From the NCBI GenBank assembly GCA_016183325.1, contig JACPEV010000013.1, forward strand, positions 4,837 to 68,836: a stretch of DNA of 64,000 nt, written 5' to 3'. Below are positions 7,112 through 52,927 of this stretch, piece after piece (the first letter of the stretch is position 1; every line of letters starts with the position of its first letter). The DNA comes from Candidatus Curtissbacteria bacterium. Lineage in GTDB: Bacteria; Patescibacteriota; Microgenomatia; Curtissbacterales; GWA2-41-24. The notes below the pieces were generated by a model. That model did no database searches. It was not told where the DNA came from and saw only the letters and a list, made by a program, of their open reading frames with translations. A program made the position numbers and the translations under genes.

Positions 7112-7462
7112 ATGAAACGTAACCTGCTACTTTTAGGAGCCGTTTTGATTAGCATTATCTTGGTTGTAAATAGTACCAAGAAGATCATGATGTTTAGAAG
7201 TACATCGCAGAAGATAGATGATCTTGAGGCTAGGTTGGAGAGGTTAAGGGAAGAGAATCGCCAACTTAAAGAAGAGCTTGAATATAAAAAAACTGACCAG
7301 TTTGCGGAAGGTGAGATTAGGAATAAGTTGGGTTTGGTTAAGGAAGGCGAGGCAGTGGTGATTGTGCCCAAGGCCGACGAACGAGAAACGACTAACGAGG
7401 AAAGTCAAGGACCCAAGCAGTCAAACTGGCAGAAGTGGTGGGATATGTTTTTTGGAAGTTAG
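7112..7462 (+). CDS. septum formation initiator, FtsB/DivIC-like
   Basis: An N-terminal TM helix, then a coiled coil (IDDLEARLERLREENRQLKEELEYKK), then a conserved GEIRNKLGLVKEGE box. Confidence 0.55.
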   Translation: MKRNLLLLGAVLISIILVVNSTKKIMMFRSTSQKIDDLEARLERLREENRQLKEELEYKKTDQFAEGEIRNKLGLVKEGEAVVIVPKADERETTNEESQGPKQSNWQKWWDMFFGS

Positions 7463-7700
7463 TGACAGGGGTGGGAATCGAACCCACAACCTAGAGGTTA
7501 TATCTTCCTCTCGCCAAAGGCGAGAGCGATATATCACCTTGTGGCAACGGCAGGATTCGAACCTGCGACCTAGGCTTTATGAGGGCCCCGCTCTACCACT
7601 GAGCTACGCTGCCGAAGATATATCAGATTCCCGCTCTGCGGGAAGGCTGATATGATTCTCTCGCTCTACCATTGAGCTACCCTGCCGAATGTAAGAGGTA
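7462..7700 (-). tRNA. interrupted tRNA(CAU)-like gene; its 5' half (7617-7700) and 3' half (7462-7540) flank an intact tRNA
   Basis: Minus-strand reading of the 5' half: GGCAGGGTAGCTCAATGGTAGAGCGAGAGAATCATA. Minus-strand reading of the 3' half: CCTCTAGGTTGTGGGTTCGATTCCCACCCCTGTCA. The acceptor halves GGCAGGG and CCCTGTC pair with one G-U. Both D and T arms are canonical. About 155 nt, including a complete tRNA, sits in the anticodon region. Confidence 0.35.
7542..7613 (-). tRNA. tRNA-Met (anticodon CAU), elongator type; could alternatively be tRNA-Ile2
   Basis: Minus-strand sequence GGCAGCGTAGCTCAGTGGTAGAGCGGGGCCCTCATAAAGCCTAGGTCGCAGGTTCGAATCCTGCCGTTGCCA. G1-C72 is paired, the loop is CTCATAA and the T-loop is TTCGAAT. 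There is one 31-39 mismatch. Confidence 0.6.
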
Positions 7701-7862
7701 TTCTAACAAAAGTTTTTAGATAAAAAAAGACTCGGCCACTTGTGTCGAATCTTTTTTGATGTTCTATTTTGTTTTAACCAACTTCCGAAGGAAGTTGAAA
7801 CGAGAAATGACGTAGCGGTTAAGTTTCTTTAGAAGAAACTGTTAAGCGAAGTCCATTTCGAG

Positions 7863-7937
7863 TTGGTAGCGGGGGCGGGAGTCGAACCCACTTCTGGAGA
7901 TTATGAGCCTCCCGAGATACCGTTTCTCCACCCCGCG
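7863..7937 (-). tRNA. initiator tRNA-fMet (anticodon CAU)
   Basis: Minus-strand sequence CGCGGGGTGGAGAAACGGTATCTCGGGAGGCTCATAATCTCCAGAAGTGGGTTCGACTCCCGCCCCCGCTACCA. The first 11 nt and the 3' CCCCCGC(A/T)ACCA match E. coli tRNAfMet. Positions 1:72 are unpaired (C1:U72), a feature of initiator tRNAs. CCA is encoded. Confidence 0.8.
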
Positions 7938-8012
7938 TCGAATATTAATTCAGTTTGCCTATTTTAGCCTTAGACGAACGGCAAGTCAAGCCTGTAGTAT
8001 CAGCCCCATAGT

Positions 8013-8627
8013 TTGACGGGTTTGAAGTGGCTTGATATAATTCCGATTATTATGAGCAATGTGGAGAGGAATTTTATCCAGAGCAGAGGAGAGTTTTTTC
8101 CCGTAAAGGAGGTTTCAGCCGAGGGTGCTGAGCCGCAAAGTTTACTTGTAGCGCTTCTGAAAACACGGATAGCAGATTTGGAAAGGGCCGTACAGGTATT
8201 AGGGGAAGCTGCGAAGAGGGTGCAAGCTTCGGAGGCAAAAGCTCGGGAAGCTGAACAGAAAGCAACTTCATATGCAACGCGGCTTGGAGATACTTTAGTG
8301 ATTAACCAAAATTTGATTAGAGAGAATCAATCTTTAAGAAGAGAAAATGAAGCAATTAAACAAACAGCTCTTAATGCTGCTAAACCACGTGAACGAGCTG
8401 TGGATCCACGGGATCCACAAGGTTACTATAGAGCATTAGGAGTTGATCCTGACGATGTAGGGAGGATGCCTGTTGATGAAGCTGACGATTACATCACAAG
8501 ATTGTGGCGTACCCATTCAATGGTTCGACATCCAGATCATGGTGGAGATACAAGAAGGCAACAGGTTTTAAATGAAGCTTATGAGTTTTTAAAAAGTCCT
8601 CTTAATAGACGTCAATACGGTAGGTAG
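8013..8627 (+). CDS. J-domain (DnaJ-like) protein with an N-terminal coiled coil
   Basis: C-terminal J-domain YYRALGVDPDDVGRMPVDEADDYITRLWRTHSMVRHPDHGGDTRRQQVLNEAYEFLKSP, with HPD at the expected position. Confidence 0.7.
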   Translation: MTGLKWLDIIPIIMSNVERNFIQSRGEFFPVKEVSAEGAEPQSLLVALLKTRIADLERAVQVLGEAAKRVQASEAKAREAEQKATSYATRLGDTLVINQNLIRENQSLRRENEAIKQTALNAAKPRERAVDPRDPQGYYRALGVDPDDVGRMPVDEADDYITRLWRTHSMVRHPDHGGDTRRQQVLNEAYEFLKSPLNRRQYGR

Positions 8628-9100: not shown

Positions 9101-9622
9101 ATGAAAAGGAGTAAGAAAACCGTCAAGACTTATGCGTTTGTTGATGCCTCCAATATTATTTATGGAACGCGCGATGATGGATGGAAGGTTGATTTTAAGA
9201 AGTTGTTTAAGTATTTAAAAGAGCGTTATAACTGTAAGGCAATTTACTATTTTGGAGGGGTTGAGAAAAACAACGAAAAACAGCAATCTTTTTACAGGAA
9301 GCTCAGATTTTTTGGCTATGAACTTGTTCTAAAGCCAGTCAAGATCTATCGTCAGCCTGATGGTGGTTCTGTCAGGAAGGCGAATTGTGATGTGGACCTC
9401 ACGTTTTATGCGATGAGAGATAAGGACAAATTCGATCGTGGTATCTTTATGACAGGGGATGGGGATTTTGCAATTCTATTGGAATATCTTATTAAGAGCG
9501 GTAAACAAGTTCAGGTTATTGCAAGTGGCAAGCGTACAGCTAGAGAATTACGAAGGGTGGTAAGAGAATATTTTACTGAGATAGGATCATTGAGGCAATT
9601 ACTTAAGTATAAAAAAAGGTAG
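9101..9622 (+). CDS. NYN-domain (LabA-like PIN-fold) ribonuclease-family protein
   Basis: VDASNIIYG near the N-terminus and [14 protein letters not shown] later, matching the NYN/LabA acidic motifs. Sits between the two copies of the trpS 5' repeat. Confidence 0.6.
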
Positions 9623-9675: not shown

Positions 9676-10764
9676 ATGAATAAGTCAATTGTTAAAAAGA
9701 GGATATTGACAGGAGACAGACCTACCGGCAGATTACATCTTGGGCATTATGTCGGCTCACTTAGGAATCGGGTGAGATTGCAGGATGAGTATGAGTGCTT
9801 CTTTATTATTGCCGATTTGCACACGCTAACAACACGGCCGGGAAGAACCGAAGAATTAAAAGAAAACATCAAACAATTGGTTTTGGATTATCTGTCGGTT
9901 GGGATAGATCCAAAAAAGGCGACGATCTATGTGCAGTCGCAGATACCAGAAGCTGCAGAGCTGGCAGTGATTTTTGGAAATTTGACGACGGTGCCAAGAC
10001 TTGAGCGGGTACCGACTCTTAAGGATGTGATGAGGGATTCCCATATTCAAATTCCGTCGTTCGGACTTTTGGGATATCCGGTTTTGCAGGCTGCCGATAT
10101 TTTGATGGTAAGAGCTAATTTGGTACCGGTTGGCCGCGATCAGGCCTCGCATATTGAGGTAACGAGAGAAATAGCCAGAGAGTTCAACAAGCTCTATGGA
10201 GTTCACATCGGGAAATCCACTCCCGGTGTGAATGAACTACACACCGGGAGTGTAAGCGGGGGAGATGGGCAAGTTTTTCCGATTCCCGAAGCGTTGATTC
10301 CGGAGGATATAGGTACTTTGCCGGGAACGGATGGAAAAGCTAAGATGAGTAAATCTGTCGGCAATGTGATTAATCTTTCGGACGATTCCGAGACGGTCAA
10401 AAAACAGGTGATGGGGATGTACACGGATCCGAAGAGGGTGCACGGGGATGAACCGGGTAACGTAGAGAATAACCCGGTTTTTATATACTTGGATGCATTT
10501 AGTCAAAGTGAAAAGTCAAAGTCGAAAGTAAAAGAACTGAAAGATAGGTACAAAAACGGTACAGTCAAGGATGTCGAGGTAAAAGAGTTTTTGGTGCAAG
10601 TGTTGGAGGAGTTTTTGCAACCACTGAGGGGGAGACGTGAAGAATATGAGAAACAGCCGGAACTCGTAGAAAAAATCTTGAAAGAGGGAACAGAGAGCGC
10701 GCGGGAAGAGGCAAAAAAGACACTTTCGCTTGTTAGAGCTGCAATGAAAATTGAGTACTTCTAA
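9676..10764 (+). CDS. trpS: tryptophan--tRNA ligase
   Basis: 362 aa. Class I HIGH motif [17 protein letters not shown] and KMSKS motif both present. Carries an in-frame insertion of about 20 aa from a palindromic element at 10217-10252. Confidence 0.9.
   Translation: MNKSIVKKRILTGDRPTGRLHLGHYVGSLRNRVRLQDEYECFFIIADLHTLTTRPGRTEELKENIKQLVLDYLSVGIDPKKATIYVQSQIPEAAELAVIFGNLTTVPRLERVPTLKDVMRDSHIQIPSFGLLGYPVLQAADILMVRANLVPVGRDQASHIEVTREIAREFNKLYGVHIGKSTPGVNELHTGSVSGGDGQVFPIPEALIPEDIGTLPGTDGKAKMSKSVGNVINLSDDSETVKKQVMGMYTDPKRVHGDEPGNVENNPVFIYLDAFSQSEKSKSKVKELKDRYKNGTVKDVEVKEFLVQVLEEFLQPLRGRREEYEKQPELVEKILKEGTESAREEAKKTLSLVRAAMKIEYF
10217..10252 (+). repeat. palindromic element family B, diverged copy, in-frame within trpS
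   Basis: ccactcccggtgtgaatgaactacacaccgggagtg encodes KSTPGVNELHTGSV. The B family has arms cccccggggtg / caccccggggg; this copy has arms ctcccggtgtg / cacaccgggag. Confidence 0.5.
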
Positions 10765-47321: not shown

Positions 47322-47721
47322 TTGTCAAGCGGTGTAGAATTAGTCGCGCGATATGCGAATACTGTTTGGTAATTTTTCTTCATTCTTACAAGTTCGCAAT
47401 TCATAGCTCTTTAACAACTGAAAAGTATGCCGCTTTTCAGTATTCTTTTGTTTGATCTTGATCCGCCTACGCTCTTCGAGCTTCGGCGGACTGCGAGTTC
47501 AAGCAAGCTTGAACTCTGAAAAGTGGCACCCAAAAAACCGGAAATCGGAATTCGGAAATCGGATTTCGGACTTTTTCTGAGATCTGATATCTGATATCTG
47601 AAATCCGGGAATAATCCTTAGAGTTATTTAAAATCGAGTTCAGATTAAATTCTTTTTTGAGAGTTTGATCCTAGCTCAGGATGAACGCTGGCGGCGTGCC
47701 TTAGGCATGCAAGTCGAACGG

Positions 47722-48155
47722 CCGGAGATCAGATTTCGGAAATCGGATTTCGGATATAATTAGAGAAGTGATGGATGTAACGGAATTGAGAGTGTATAGG
47801 CAATCATTAGATGCATTTCTATTAATTGAAGAGATTGCAAAACAATTGCCAAAAGAGTTAGCTGATACAAGAAGACAAATATTAAGATGCTCAAAAGCTG
47901 TTGCACCCATTATTGCAGAGGGTTTTGGACGTAGACATTCACAAAGAGAATTTGGACATTACGTAATTCAAGCTATGAGTTCTTCAGATGAGACAATAAC
48001 CCATTTGAGAACAATTGCTATTTCCAAATTTAATACTGTTTCAATCGATCAGTTGAAACATGCGGCGAGTGTCTATAAATCTCTTTCCAAACAACTCAAC
48101 AAACTTTTCACTTCTTTAATAGTCTGAAATCTGACTTCTGATATCCGATCTCCGG
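47722..48155 (+). other. intervening sequence in the 16S helix-6 region, bounded by inverted repeats and encoding a protein
   Basis: ccggagatcagatttcggaaatcggatttcgga (5' boundary) and tccgaaatc...atccgatctccgg (3' boundary) are inverted repeats around ORF 47768-48127. The mature 16S resumes with cagtggcggaagggtgagtaatg. Confidence 0.65.
47768..48127 (+). CDS. four-helix-bundle protein of the family known as rRNA intervening-sequence (S23-like) proteins
   Basis: LRVYRQSLDAFLLIEEIAKQLPKELADTRRQILRCSKAVAPIIAEGFGRRHSQREFGHYVIQAMSSSDETITHL matches the family pattern, including AEG[FY]GRR. Confidence 0.7.
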   Translation: MMDVTELRVYRQSLDAFLLIEEIAKQLPKELADTRRQILRCSKAVAPIIAEGFGRRHSQREFGHYVIQAMSSSDETITHLRTIAISKFNTVSIDQLKHAASVYKSLSKQLNKLFTSLIV

Positions 48156-48929
48156 CAGTGGCGGAAGGGTGAGTAATGCATAGGAACGTACCTTTTGGTG
48201 GGGAATAACCCGGCGAAAGCCGGGCTAATACCTCGTAATCCCGCAAGGGTATAGGGCTTAACCGCCCGCCGAAAGAGTGGCCTATGTCCTATCAGCTTGT
48301 TGGTGGGGTAATGGCCTACCAAGGCAACGACGGGTAGCTGGGCTGAGAGGTCGGCCAGCCACAAGGGAACTGAGACACGGTCCCTACACCTACGGGTGGC
48401 AGCAACCGGGAATTTTGGACAATGGGCGAAAGCCTGATCCAGCGACGCCGCGTGGAGGAAGAAGGCCTTAGGGTTGTAAACTCCTTTTGGCCCGCATAAT
48501 GCGGGCAGAATAAGCACCTGCTAACTACGTGCCAGCAGCCGCGGTGATACGTAGGGTGCAAGCGTTATCCGGATTTACTGGGCGTAAAGGGTTGCGTAGG
48601 CGGCTTGTTAAGTCAAAACTGAAATACTCTCGCTCAACGAGGGGGACGGTTTTGATACTAGCAGGCTTTGAGTCTTTCAGAGGTAGCTGGAACTTGCAGT
48701 GGAGCGGTGAAATGCGTTGATATTGCAAGGAACACCGAAGGCGTAGGCAAGCTACTGGGAAAGATCCCTGTACCATTCGGTACGGGACGGGCTGCATCGT
48801 AAGATGCGCCTAGTCTGACGCTGATGCACGAAAGCTAGGGGAGCGAAAGGGATTAGAGACCCCTGTAGTCCTAGCCGTAAATGATGGATACTAGATGTCC
48901 GGCTCGCAAAGTCGTATGACTTTGCGAGA

Positions 48930-49022
48930 ACATTTGACATTTAACAAATTAACATTTGACTATTGGAAAATTTTGTAAATTTTTTAAGTCAATTGTTAAA
49001 TGTTACTAGTTAATTGTTCGAG
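48930..49022 (+). repeat. insertion of about 90 nt in the 16S helix around E. coli position 840, built of 'acatttgaca/caattgtta' repeats
   Basis: gaacatttgacatttaacaaattaacatttgactattgg...gtcaattgttaaatgttactagttaattgttcg lies between conserved cgcaaagtc...gacttt and gctaacgcgttaagt. Confidence 0.55.
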
Positions 49023-49084
49023 CAAAATCGTAGATTTTGCGAGCTGGATGTCGCAAGCTAACGCGTTAAGTGTCCCGCCTGGGA

Positions 49085-49152
<68 letters not shown>

Positions 49153-49356
49153 CAATTCGACACAAAGCGAAAAACCTTACCAGGATTTGACATCCTAACT
49201 GCACCCTAGTGGAAACACCGGGCTTCTTCGAGAGTGTTAGGACAGGTGCTGCATGGCTGTCGTCAGCTTGTACCGTGAGGCGCACCCTTAAGTGGGTCAA
49301 CAAGCGCAACCCCCATCCTGTGTTATATTTCACAGGAAACTGCCCGCTAAAAGCGA

Positions 49357-49387
<31 letters not shown>

Positions 49388-49588
49388 CGGCCCTTATGTC
49401 CTGGGCTACACACATCCTACAATGGGTATTTGACAACAGGTTTGCAATCCGGTAACGGAAAGCTAATCCCCAAAAATACCCTCAGTTCAGATTGAGGGCT
49501 GCAATTTGCCCTCATGAAGTTGAAATCGCTAGTAATCGCGGATCAGCAGGCCGCGGTGAATACGTTCTCGGGTCTTGTACACACCGCC

Positions 49589-50545
49589 AATTTAAAAAAC
49601 GCGCGTGGCAGCATAAATGGCTAGTTGGTTCAAATCCAACTCACGTTCATGAAACTGAACGTGATAGTCAAAAAAATTAGACAGTTCCGACAGAGTAATT
49701 TGTCGGTACGGAGGGTCTGAGACAAATAGCAGTCCATTTAAAAAAGTTCTTTTCATGAATGATCTCAGCCGGGCGGTTTGAGAGAAATTCAACTAATAAA
49801 GTAGAAGAATTGATGGAATGCTAGGAATAGTTATTTATGTAACCCATGGAGATCCTATCAGGAAGAGGTTATTATCTGGTAGGAAGTCAGCTGTTTCATA
49901 GTAAGTAAATTAGAGGATTGATTTTGTTGCTTGATAGAAGTAAACTAAATTAACCCGAATATTTACCGAAGGGAACAACGAAGTGATAACGTCAGATTAT
50001 ATTGTTGGTTTTACCGACGGCGAAGGCTGTTTTTATGTACAAATAAGAACAGATTTTCGTATCGTGCTTCGATATTTTATAACCCAACGATTTGACAACA
50101 AAGAAATCTTAGAAAATATTTTAAGATTCTTTGGAGTTGGATATGTGCATTTAAAAGCACAAGAGTGGGGTAGGGAATATAGAAGATCTCGGTTACCAAC
50201 ATATGTCTTTGAGGTGACTAAACAGGAACATATTCAAAATGTGATTGTTCCTTTCTTTAGAAAAAATCCACTTCAAGGAGTGAAACAGTTCTCTTTTGAA
50301 AAATTCGCAAAGATTGCAGACCTTGTAAAAGGTCGGCAAGACACGCGACTACTTTCTGAAGAGGAACTTGAATTAATCTGGCAGTTGAAACGTTCTATGA
50401 ATGTTTTAAACACTTCGGCTCGCCTGGTGCCGGAAATCGGCTCGCCGGTCCACCTACGCTAAAGCTACGGTGGATCCTCCGAAGCTCCAAAGGAGCGGAG
50501 GAGGAGTGGGAACGGGAACATACCTCTAAGTATCCCAATCCGTCA
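49589..50545 (+). mobile_element. intron-like insertion of about 0.95 kb near the 16S 3' end (around E. coli 1400), carrying a LAGLIDADG endonuclease ORF
   Basis: The conserved gtacacaccgcc is interrupted at about 49588. A 16S-like sequence (..cgtcaagcc..aagtcggtagtgcctgaag..gtcgtaacaaggta) resumes at about 50545. The exact boundaries are uncertain. Confidence 0.55.
49983..50462 (+). CDS. LAGLIDADG homing endonuclease encoded within the 16S insertion
   Basis: IVGFTDGEGCFYVQI is the LAGLIDADG motif. 159 aa. Confidence 0.8.
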   Translation: MITSDYIVGFTDGEGCFYVQIRTDFRIVLRYFITQRFDNKEILENILRFFGVGYVHLKAQEWGREYRRSRLPTYVFEVTKQEHIQNVIVPFFRKNPLQGVKQFSFEKFAKIADLVKGRQDTRLLSEEELELIWQLKRSMNVLNTSARLVPEIGSPVHLR

Positions 50546-51916: not shown

Positions 51917-52170
51917 CTCTAGTCCCGGTCCTTCGGACCAGGGACCGAGTCGGTTTTGACGAAGTCAAAACCAGACTCCTTCGGACCAGGGACCGAGTCG
52001 GTTTTGACGAAGTCAAAAACCAGACTCCTTCGGACCAGGGACCGAGTCGGTTTTGACGAAGTCAAAACCAGACTCCTTCGGACCAGGGACCGAGTCGGTT
52101 TTGACGAAGTCAAAACCAGACTCCTTCGGACCAGGGACCGAGTCGGTTTTGACGAAGTCAAAACCAGACT
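51917..52170 (+). repeat. tandem array of five 48-bp hairpin-forming units with no spacers
   Basis: Unit tccttcggaccagggaccgagtcggttttgacgaagtcaaaaccagac x5; one copy has an extra a. Each unit contains the perfect hairpin ggttttgac gaa gtcaaaacc. Confidence 0.85.
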
Positions 52171-52227: not shown

Positions 52228-52500
52228 GTGTCTGGAATGTTTTACTATGTTTATATTCTTTTCAGTCTAAAGGATAAGAACTTATATGTTGGAAGAACTA
52301 GCGATATATTCAAAAGGCTAGAAAGACATAATAACGGACGAGTAATTGCAACTAAGAGTAGAAGACCTTTAAAGTTAATACATCTGGAAGTTTTTAAAGA
52401 TGCTGGAAAAGCTTTTTTAAGAGAAAAAGAACTTAAGTATCCAAGCGCAGGGAAATTTAAAAAGGAATTAAGAGAAAAATTAGGAATAGATAGAGTCTGA
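52228..52500 (+). CDS. GIY-YIG nuclease-domain protein
   Basis: FYYVYILFSLKDKNLYVGRTSDIFKRLERHNNG contains the GIY...YIG...R..H/E-N core. Confidence 0.75.
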   Translation: MSGMFYYVYILFSLKDKNLYVGRTSDIFKRLERHNNGRVIATKSRRPLKLIHLEVFKDAGKAFLREKELKYPSAGKFKKELREKLGIDRV

Positions 52501-52657
52501 ATATTTTGCTTTGCAAAGTATCGACTTGGTCTCTTGTAAGCAGACACAATGGGCGGTTAGCTCTGTGGTCTAACATTGTTTTGTTTTGCAAAACGTGTCG
52601 ACTCGTTTTTGCTGTCGCAAAATTAGAGTAGAGCGTTACACTGCTTTTTGAAAATTT

Positions 52658-52732
52658 GGGTCCGTGGCTCAGTGGTAGAGCGTCACACTGATAATGTGAA
52701 GGTCGGAGGTTCAATTCCTCCCGGACCCACCA
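52658..52732 (+). tRNA. tRNA-Ile (anticodon GAU)
   Basis: GGGTCCGTGGCTCAGTGGTAGAGCGTCACACTGATAATGTGAAGGTCGGAGGTTCAATTCCTCCCGGACCCACCA. CCA is encoded. Flanked by the inverted repeat ttttgaaaattt / aaattttcaaaa. A partial tRNA-like duplicate (agagtagagcgttacactg) lies about 30 nt upstream. Confidence 0.85.
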
Positions 52733-52927
52733 AATTTTCAAAAATATCGCTCTCGCGATAGCGAGAGGAAGATTTAATATCGATGTCGAAGGAGAGGATG
52801 TGCCAAGCTAAGTCACATTGAAGGTGGATTAGTAATTGAAGGTGGATTAGTAAGCTAAGTCACATTGAAGGTGGATTAGTTGGTTGAAGGTGGATTAGTT
52901 GGTGGATTAGTTCAAATATAATTTTGA

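Follow-up and report, generated by a model that had tools for sequence, protein, structure and literature searches.

Complete tRNA genes nested in the anticodon loop of other tRNA genes in Candidatus Curtissbacteria and related Microgenomates

In a 64-kb stretch of DNA from Candidatus Curtissbacteria (hereafter the window, to which coordinates refer unless a comparison locus is named), a tRNA(CAU) gene on the minus strand at 7462-7686 is interrupted between anticodon nucleotides 34 and 35 by a 152-bp insert that carries a second, complete tRNA(CAU) gene between two hairpins. The arrangement recurs: about 23 distinct nests of this kind have been found in contigs of Microgenomates, members of the Candidate Phyla Radiation (CPR), and in two phage contigs, with tRNA-Met/Ile2(CAU), tRNA-Ile(UAU), and tRNA-Ile(GAU) genes as hosts. 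The anatomy and the insertion point are shared, some nests contain further nests, the hairpin modules covary, and the inner genes are intact while many of the outer ones have decayed. It seems rather probable that the nests arise by recurrent site-specific insertion of a tRNA-carrying foldback cassette, the inner gene being the working one and the outer gene a relic. The loci and contigs used for comparison are designated L001-L095.

Anatomy of the Nested tRNA(CAU) Gene

An initial annotation of this region, made from the sequence alone, described a tRNA gene split in the anticodon loop by an insert with a complete tRNA inside, and this description is borne out by ARAGORN in its intron mode and by Rfam. 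When run with intron detection on the minus strand, as the annotation had proposed, ARAGORN joins the two halves into a tRNA(cat) of 73 nt whose anticodon loop is split by 152 nt. Default ARAGORN and Rfam recover the inner tRNA(cat) (7541/2-7613, 69 bits) and a neighbouring initiator-type tRNA but miss the outer gene.

Exon 1 of the outer gene (7654-7686, minus strand, ARAGORN -i) comprises nucleotides 1-34, namely the acceptor strand GGCAGGG, the D arm, the 5′ strand AGAGA of the anticodon stem, and the loop residues A-U-C34, and reads GGCAGGG-UA-GCUC-AAUGGUA-GAGC-G-AGAGA-AUC from 7686 to 7654. Exon 2 (7462-7501, minus strand, ARAGORN -i) comprises nucleotides 35-73, with AUAA, the stem strand CCUCU, the variable loop, the T arm, the acceptor strand CCCTGTC, and A73, and reads AUAA-CCUCU-AGGUU-GUGGG-UUCGAUU-CCCAC-CCCUGUC-A from 7501 to 7462. 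Both halves had been recognized in the initial annotation, albeit within ranges that were too wide: the 5′ half placed at 7617-7700 also takes in the first hairpin, H1, and the leader, and the 3′ half placed at 7462-7540 also takes in the second hairpin, H2. If spliced, the joined halves would give the junction GAGAAUC|AUAACCUCU; together they form 20 of the 21 cloverleaf pairs, as many as the uninterrupted orthologue in L007.

The insert between the halves is a chain of three modules on the minus strand, each preceded by an AT dinucleotide. The first (7622-7653 with its AT) is the hairpin H1, ATCAG-CC-TTCCCGC-aga-GCGGGAA-T-CTGAT; the second (7533-7621) consists of the leader ATCTTC, the inner tRNA(CAU) of class II (7613-7542; ARAGORN, Rfam), and the trailer CAAGGTGAT; the third (7502-7532) is the hairpin H2, ATCG-CTCTCGCC-ttt-GGCGAGAG-GAAGAT. 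The chain can be written as AT-(H1)-AT-(ATCTTC-tRNA-CAAGGTGAT)-AT-(H2)-AT, where the last AT is A35U36 of the outer gene. The non-tRNA part of the insert amounts to only 80 nt, and no open reading frame (ORF) was found in the 152 bp. Both ends of the insert carry AUA, and the junction in the window can therefore be placed at any point within C|A|U|A. The D arms of the inner and outer tRNAs, which are paralogues, are nearly identical. In the predicted fold of a 241-nt stretch, the outer acceptor, D, and T arms are formed together with H1, the inner cloverleaf, and H2 (z = -4.0).

The sequence GATATATC, present at 7624-7617 and 7535-7528, is palindromic, so its two copies pair together as an 8-bp leader/trailer clamp of the inner tRNA; there are three copies in the window against 0.42 expected by chance. 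Its earlier interpretation as a target duplication had to be abandoned, as the copies bracket the inner-tRNA module only and not the 152-bp insert; each copy is a GAT.AT.ATC joint of foldback modules, and the ends of the insert repeat only AT or ATA.

The nest is not an assembly artefact, because assemblies of separate sequencing runs are identical across it: 801 bp including the nest are 100% identical in L008 (Logan assembly, run SRR12113419), and L009 (run SRR12113422) shows 100% identity over the 621 bp that its contig covers, with the whole nest included.

The Resident Gene and Its Locus

Comparison with related genomes, which the initial annotation had also recommended, reveals the outer gene in uninterrupted form at the same locus in L007 and L016 (GGCAGGGTAGCTCAATGGCAGAGCGAGAGAATCATAACCTCTAGGTTGTGGGTTCGATCCCCACCCCTGCCA), and nests in other relatives. 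The uninterrupted gene differs from the joined halves of the window at three positions, one of them in exon 1. Since an uninterrupted orthologue occupies the same locus, the outer gene is resident, and the 152 bp were inserted into it. These sequence comparisons identify the outer gene as the class-I tRNA(CAU) that is resident at the fMet-tRNA/DivIC/XerD locus of Candidatus Curtissbacteria.

The elongator-type CAU tRNAs of the relatives fall into two structural classes, class I with A31.C39 (loop AUCAUAA or CUCAUAA) and class II with C31.A39; in the window, the outer tRNA belongs to class I and the inner tRNA to class II. The A31.C39 mismatch of the outer gene is thus a conserved trait of its class and not damage. 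A division into three types was considered and rejected: A31.C39 is common to types A and C, only type B shows C31.A39, and the types thus collapse to the two classes. More distant relatives have tRNA-Ile(UAU) nests at the same locus (L055, L083), a coincidence from which one may conjecture that class I is the AUA decoder (Ile2).

The upstream neighbour of the nest is an initiator-type tRNA(CAU) with encoded CCA, which had been noticed in the initial annotation and is placed at 7864-7937 (minus strand) by ARAGORN and Rfam, outside the nest and with its own terminator hairpin at about 7752-7722. It is identical in nearly all related loci, where it stands beside one further CAU tRNA. A probable extended -10 element, TGTTAGAAT, is situated at 7700-7708 on the minus strand, 14 nt upstream of the outer 5′ end, and a TGATAGAAT-like motif occupies the same place upstream of the second CAU tRNA in L001, L007, L016, L021, L025, L029, L044, and L069. 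A consensus scan inside the nest found no further promoter, and TGTTAGAAT is probably the only promoter-like element that serves the whole nest.

Recurrence of Nests in Other Genomes

Two samples were searched for similar arrangements. Among 22 XerD-syntenic species genomes, clear nests are present in three: in L014, an intact outer tRNA has one more 3′ half, a decayed one, outside it; in L013, the outer tRNA has acquired a D-loop hairpin and a shortened anticodon stem; in L029, the outer tRNA is decayed. Relics were detected in L011 and L016. The second sample was a metagenome scan with the pattern GGTTCGA N{25,55} GATATAA N{11,14} GGTTCGA, which returned 60 matches against about 28 expected by chance. 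About 33 of them are chance matches or a cut-off duplicate (L085), and the other 27 are mostly nested tRNAs, about 18 distinct ones after removal of duplicates and of a few tRNA-adjacent chance matches. The nests recovered by the scan have CAU in CAU (L043, L045, L064, L069, L082, L095, and the relic L044), Ile(UAU) in Ile(UAU) (L050, L055, L063, L066, L076, L083, L088, L092), Ile(GAU) in Ile(GAU) (L074, L090), and Arg(UCU) inside a decayed NAU-type tRNA (L078). That the hosts all have NAU anticodons is partly due to search bias, because the pattern forced exon 2 to begin with ATAA. As ARAGORN in intron mode gave many spurious calls on whole loci, it was used only with explicit junction checks.

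Many of the metagenome nests lie in the XerD-DivIC-FtsH neighbourhood with an XerD identity of 60-86%, which is the divergence seen between Curtissbacteria and metagenome-assembled genomes (MAGs) of Daviesbacteria or Gottesmanbacteria. Phages are represented as well. L078 has the same sequence as the phage contig L037 (IMG/VR), where the nest at 2332-2532 contains a tRNA-Arg(UCU) with an 11-bp inverted-repeat clamp inside decayed tRNA halves; L037 encodes thymidylate synthase, a T4-like helicase loader, and an ssDNA-binding protein. The phage contig L036 (= L047, IMG/VR) has a nest-like structure at 9904-10090, with an fMet-like tRNA followed by GATAT|AA and an orphan 3′ half.

The window itself holds a second, decayed nest around tRNA-Ile(GAU) at 52551-52775 on the plus strand, in the rRNA-linked tRNA-Ile(GAU) locus 45 kb from the CAU nest. 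Its outer exon 1 (52551-52643), whose D loop contains hairpin insertions totalling about 55 nt, is followed by the leader CTTTTTGAAAATTT, an intact inner tRNA (52658-52732), and the trailer AAATTTTCAAAAA, the leader and trailer sharing a 12-nt exact repeat. Next come AT and an H2 module (52746-52773) with the stem CTCTCGC/GCGAGAG, the same as in H2 at 7502-7530, to which the module as a whole is nearly identical, so that both nests of one genome carry H2 with the same stem; outer exon 2 has decayed beyond recognition. No further copies of the modules were found in the 64-kb window beyond these two nests. Two tandem repeat arrays flank the tRNA-Cys/tRNA-Ile region, at 51920-52170 and 52810-52910; one is built of about five copies of a unit of about 48 nt (ctccttcggaccagggaccgagtcggttttgacgaagtcaaaaccaga), the other of gaaggtggattagt repeats.

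A conserved motif of another kind, TTGATATAAYRGGCWAATC...GGTTCGA, was noticed downstream of tRNA-His or tRNA-Lys in L058, L067, L086, and L051. It is unrelated to the nests and may represent the promoter and start of an unannotated small RNA.

Common Architecture: One Junction, Foldback Modules, and a Clamp

The junction 34|35 fits every nest (about 23), and L074 permits no other position; exon 2 always starts with A35-U36-A37-A38. The insert is in each case a chain of foldback modules, whose termini ATC...GAT are extended by complementary sequence, with an AT dinucleotide between modules. At the insert boundaries, 2-3 nucleotides (AT or ATA) are repeated in CAU nests and 0-2 in the others: the boundary AT is repeated in all CAU nests, in four of eight UAU nests, and in one of three GAU nests, and is absent in L074 and in the GAU nest of the window.

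The hairpins are conserved in framework and paired in structure. H1 follows the scheme ATCAG-CC-stem-loop-stem-T-CTGAT and has homologues in L043, L064, L082, L095, and L045 and a stand-alone copy in L014, with stems as different as TTCCCGC/GCGGGAA, TTCGTC/GACGAA, TTCGCC/GGCGAA, ATTTGCA/TGCAAAT, and AAGGCT/AGCTTT. The H1 alignment is 92% paired, with seven pairs changed on both sides, and none of 500 shuffles was as good. H2 follows ATCG-CT...AG-GAAGAT, with homologues in the second nest of the window, L069, L090, and L095; its alignment is 98% paired, with three pairs changed on both sides. The idea that H2 is a degenerate copy of the outer anticodon arm (GCGAGAGGAAGAT resembles GCGAGAGAATCAT) was rejected, as H2 is conserved where the outer anticodon stems are unrelated (L069, L090, L095).

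The nested inner tRNAs are likewise clamped by exact leader/trailer inverted repeats of 8-21 nt, whose sequences vary by nest while complementarity is kept. In about 95 other tRNAs, such repeats do not exceed 6-7 nt in nearly all cases, the sole exception being a 9-nt match 21 nt from a phage tRNA-Thr, probably due to chance. H1-type modules also stand alone, singly or in tandem, in intergenic DNA (L014, 1538-1567; L095, 4222-4335 and 6008-6040). The foldback chains of L014 (1538-1567) and L095 (4222-4335 and 5960-6040), with CTGAT.AT.ATCAG joints, lie in intergenic DNA and in the xerD 5′ untranslated region (UTR), away from any tRNA. An empty-site comparison for the stand-alone H1 in the L014 XerD 5′ UTR gave no result, the regions being too diverged to align.

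Layering, Decay, and Turnover

Nesting is recursive. Three layers are present in L055 and L066, and the tRNA found inside in L064 (GCCAGCG...) reappears as the outer one in L043, where it is filled by a further cassette (GGCTGCG...). All 21 nests scored have an intact innermost tRNA. The outer tRNA is intact, with 20-21 of 21 pairs, in 12 nests (window, L014, L043, L045, L055, L064, L066, L074, L076, L082, L088, L090) and is decayed or incoherent in at least 8 of the 21 (8-10 are not intact), which makes 0/21 for inner against 8/21 for outer genes (Fisher p = 0.003). Search bias is equal for both, because the pattern required both T loops equally.

The decay takes several forms. In L069, the two outer exons stem from different tRNAs, and in L063 and L092 the outer halves do not match either; such mismatched halves show that layers are deleted regardless of outer function. 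Only the trailer or the 3′ half is left in L011, L016, and L044. The lost outer genes include some that differed from the inner gene in class or isotype (the outermost layer of L014, L011, and L078). Extra GC-rich hairpins have entered five outer 5′ halves, in each of the five in the D loop (L013, L063, L092, L095, and the Ile nest of the window).

As for the incoming genes, the inner and outer tRNAs of L074 differ by many compensated substitutions, and therefore the tRNA that came in was a diverged functional gene, not a local duplicate. In L043 and L064, the inner and outer bodies are identical and only the acceptor stems differ. More generally, class-II CAU tRNAs (L043, L064, and others) have almost identical bodies (positions 8-65) across species and acceptor stems that differ by 2-3 compensated base pairs, an unusually fast acceptor-stem turnover.

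A Cassette Model and Its Difficulties

According to the reading favoured here, tRNA genes with NAU anticodons in Microgenomates, and apparently in some phages, would repeatedly receive a tRNA-bearing cassette at one position, and repeated rounds of insertion into the newly delivered tRNA would build "onions". In the window, the cassette would be the 152 bp composed of H1, the clamped class-II tRNA(CAU), and H2, placed at 34|35 of the class-I tRNA(CAU). A site-specific enzyme that exchanges at the AT dinucleotide would move it; an activity like that of a serine recombinase or of an AT/TA-targeting transposase would fit, and the palindromic GAT.AT.ATC joints resemble recombination sites built around a central dinucleotide. 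The whole nest would be transcribed from a promoter upstream of the outermost 5′ half. As no promoter-like element lies inside the nest, the inner tRNA would have to be made from a precursor with the outer halves, H1, and H2 as leader and trailer, from which the innermost tRNA, presumably the working gene, would be freed by RNase P and 3′ processing. The clamp and the hairpins may keep the inner tRNA folding apart from the homologous outer halves, and if they prevent mispairing with the outer wrapping in this way, their maintenance would be explained without splicing. The outer halves would not be rejoined but would turn into relics that gain D-loop insertions, lose the partner half, or are deleted; the outer relic of the window would still be young and intact.

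Several points weigh against this model. Twelve outer tRNAs, that of the window among them, are still flawless cloverleaves, a large share to find among neutral relics, unless these turn over quickly. In the window, the class-II inner tRNA and the class-I outer tRNA are not interchangeable, and loss of the outer one would require another class-I gene or AUA/AUG decoder elsewhere. The conserved covarying hairpins and the maintained clamp would equally suit a substrate for splicing at the RNA level, and the confinement of secondary insertions to the D loop (5/5) could be explained by selection on a still-used gene. Leader and trailer sequences vary among nests, unlike the terminal repeats of a classic transposon family. 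No donor copy, recombinase, or transposase was identified, with no genome-wide transposase search made. A role of the neighbouring XerD as the responsible recombinase was considered but is not supported, since it is a conserved syntenic gene of the housekeeping type and nests also occur at the Ile(GAU) locus 45 kb away.

Alternative Explanations

Whether the outer gene is a pseudogene or is split by an intron was rightly posed as the question in the initial annotation. In the latter case, the insert would be a true tRNA-bearing intron, and the nest a compact two-in-one gene from which both tRNAs become functional; we hold this to be unlikely. Cleavage of the precursor would take place either at the inner tRNA, through RNase P and a 3′ endonuclease, or at the AU linkers that separate the hairpins; the acceptor stem and the clamp would hold the outer halves together, and, after trimming, a cellular RNA ligase would join them. 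Such a route agrees with the perfect cloverleaves of half of the outer genes, including those of the window and L082, the two nests that have different CAU classes inside and outside, both surviving. It also agrees with the maintenance of H1, H2, and the clamp by compensatory change, with the restriction of extra insertions in the outer halves to the D loop, and with the acceptor stems of L043 and L064, which differ between inner and outer genes despite identical bodies and would thereby avert mispairing in a shared precursor. Moreover, Patescibacteria tolerate anticodon-loop tRNA introns at 33/34-36/37 (PMC13011429).

However, neither a self-splicing core nor a splicing motif was recognized. 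A group I core, a group II intron, or another known ribozyme can be set aside, since there was no Rfam covariance match of this kind at E ≤ 10 in the window at 7300-8100, where only tRNA and noise were hit, or in 20 nest loci. The bulge-helix-bulge (BHB) motif consists of a 3-nt bulge, a 4-bp helix, and a 3-nt bulge at the two splice sites. Its best fit in four nests reached 6-7 of the 10 scored pair positions, which shuffled introns reach in 59-279 of 300 trials, and a BHB intron was rejected because the fit is no better than that of shuffled introns. The 5′ junction sequence is not conserved (AUAUCAG, AUGACAG, AAAUUAGG, CGUUCAC), and each module is dispensable: L069 and L090 lack H1, L043 and L064 lack H2, and L069 has lost the clamp. 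The outer genes decay and the inner ones never do, and the losses extend, as described above, to outer genes of another class or isotype than the inner one. Nor is a bacterial enzyme known that rejoins tRNA halves at 34/35. A new, protein-dependent class of bacterial tRNA intron, with the cuts set by the processing of the enclosed tRNA (RNase P and 3′ endonuclease) or by the AU linkers and with a cellular ligase joining 34/35, is quite unlikely on this evidence; if it existed, one promoter and about 225 bp would yield two mature tRNAs, probably Met and Ile2.

Another possibility, which we deem improbable, is homing-type gene conversion. A free-standing nuclease, e.g., a small GIY-YIG protein, would cut intact NAU-anticodon tRNA genes at the anticodon, and the break would be repaired from a nested allele with the outer halves as homology arms, so that the cassette and the replacement tRNA are copied in. 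Homing endonucleases in phage tRNA clusters are a known precedent. GIY-YIG ORFs are situated 0.2-0.8 kb from nests in the window, L095, L069, and L013; that of the window (52228-52500, plus strand, 90 aa, Pfam E = 3e-15) precedes the outer 5′ half of the second nest by about 50 nt. A real target duplication is lacking, all isotypes share one insertion point, and cargo tRNAs may differ where the flanks are the same (L088 vs. L063 and L092; L066), a reticulate pattern expected of recombination. Yet the proximity, suggestive in these four loci, is not confined to nests: GIY-YIG ORFs are also present in the nest-free L024 and L026, most nests have none nearby, and no enrichment stands out clearly. 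At about 90 aa, the proteins comprise the catalytic domain only. Homing would leave unexplained both the AT-delimited modular build and the stand-alone hairpin modules.

It is highly improbable that the nests are local accidents without a dedicated element, in which fold-back or template-switch errors or illegitimate recombination put a neighbouring tRNA into the loop and the hairpins are by-products. The paralogy of the inner and outer tRNAs with their near-identical D arms would agree with such an origin, and so would the rearrangement-prone state of the locus. In the region upstream of DivIC, the initiator tRNA and the second CAU tRNA are not oriented alike relative to XerD when the close relatives L001, L007, L010, and L030 are compared with the window; one or both tRNAs are inverted, and the locus is therefore prone to rearrangement. 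Against accidents, CAU, UAU, and GAU tRNAs of different loci and lineages share one junction, the H1 and H2 modules, and the AT/ATC...GAT grammar, and in L074 the inner and outer genes are diverged functional tRNAs, not fresh duplicates. Finally, an assembly chimera or a chance resemblance, conceivable for a metagenome-assembled source with repeat-like tRNA genes, deserves practically no credence in view of the two separate run assemblies, more than 20 analogous nests from other projects, and halves that form a 20/21-pair cloverleaf only 3 nt from a real orthologue.

Neighbouring Genes and Other Features of the Window

The CAU nest is surrounded by genes for ATP synthase, XerD, DivIC, tRNAs, a DnaJ-domain protein, an NYN-domain protein, TrpRS, and FtsH. 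The adjoining XerD-type recombinase matches a Candidatus Curtissbacteria protein at 100% identity, has hundreds of homologues at 80-87% identity, the range seen across the genus, and is a conserved syntenic gene. The NYN-domain (PIN-like RNase) ORF lies at 9101-9622 on the plus strand, 1.4 kb from the nest; in the nest-free L001 and L007, other genes are found at its position.

The 16S rRNA gene (47653-49640) is 1988 nt long against the 1533-nt model, with about 450 nt of insertions, as is typical of CPR/Patescibacteria, and a LAGLIDADG endonuclease ORF follows it at 49983-50462. No 23S gene is present in the 64-kb window, and hence the rRNA genes are unlinked.

Significance and Relation to Known Systems

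The nests point to a way of tRNA turnover in streamlined CPR genomes in which a new tRNA would be dropped into the anticodon of an old one, repeatably and with layered "fossil" halves left behind. Standard finders report the inner gene only, and intron-mode finders may give spurious calls; as the outer genes are missed, censuses of CAU tRNAs (Met vs. Ile2) in these genomes can be wrong. A mobile cassette would represent a novel type of very small element that targets anticodons and carries cargo. A spliced outer gene would contain a bacterial tRNA intron belonging to neither group I nor group II and, once splicing is demonstrated, a categorically new intron class. Either way, the nests offer a testable handle on RNA processing in not-yet-cultured organisms.

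The closest known case is that of the group I introns described at 33/34-36/37 of Patescibacteria tRNAs, in an account that does not mention nests (PMC13011429). They share with the nests the host phylum, the anticodon-loop target, a near-identical position, and a host gene missed by standard finders. Unlike them, the nest insert ends in ...GAU, ...GAUA, ...GAUAU, or ...GAUAUA at any allowed junction and never in G, has about 80 nt of non-tRNA sequence with a complete tRNA inside, and often lies in a decayed outer gene. An insert that is probably a group I intron of the type described for Patescibacteria was met in a Daviesbacteria MAG, where the initiator tRNA (L031, 3196-3491, minus strand) has an anticodon-loop insert of about 221 nt. 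Group II introns are six-domain ribozymes that measure at least about 600 nt and usually encode a reverse transcriptase, whereas the nest insert of 152 nt has neither an ORF nor an Rfam match.

The disrupted tRNAs of archaea and algae (BHB, multiple-intron, split, and permuted) resemble the nests in that the anticodon and D loops are interrupted, several interruptions may occur per gene, and complementary leader/trailer sequences unite the halves. The nests differ in their bacterial host, in the insertion at 34/35 instead of 37/38, and in the whole tRNA inside. A splicing endonuclease is not known from these bacteria.

Elements that target tRNA genes by means of tyrosine integrases, such as phages and islands, carry the integrase themselves, are flanked by a direct repeat of part of the tRNA gene, and restore the gene that they disrupt. 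They also insert site-specifically into the anticodon loop, and the incoming DNA supplies the tRNA function so that the host is unharmed. In contrast to them, the nest insert is only 110-250 bp long, encodes no integrase, brings a complete tRNA rather than a 3′ part, is flanked by both old halves with a 0-3-nt repeat and no att-type repeat, and is recursive.

Miniature inverted-repeat transposable elements (MITEs; Correia, RUP; TA-targeting) and palindrome elements derived from IS200/IS605 are, like the nest modules, short non-autonomous hairpin units with inverted termini (ATC...GAT), a dinucleotide that in the nests is repeated at most boundaries, some intergenic copies, and tandem chains of modules. 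Terminal inverted repeats, the hallmark of MITEs and foldback elements, are present in the nests: every module has ATC...GAT, and exact 8-21-nt repeats surround the nested tRNAs. What separates the nests from MITEs is the tRNA cargo, the strict 34/35 targeting in NAU-anticodon tRNAs, and inverted repeats that differ between copies yet stay complementary, along with the fact that no cognate transposase was identified. A full-text literature search returned no description of nested bacterial tRNA genes, and we regard the nests as a new variant among disrupted or insertion-targeted tRNA genes.

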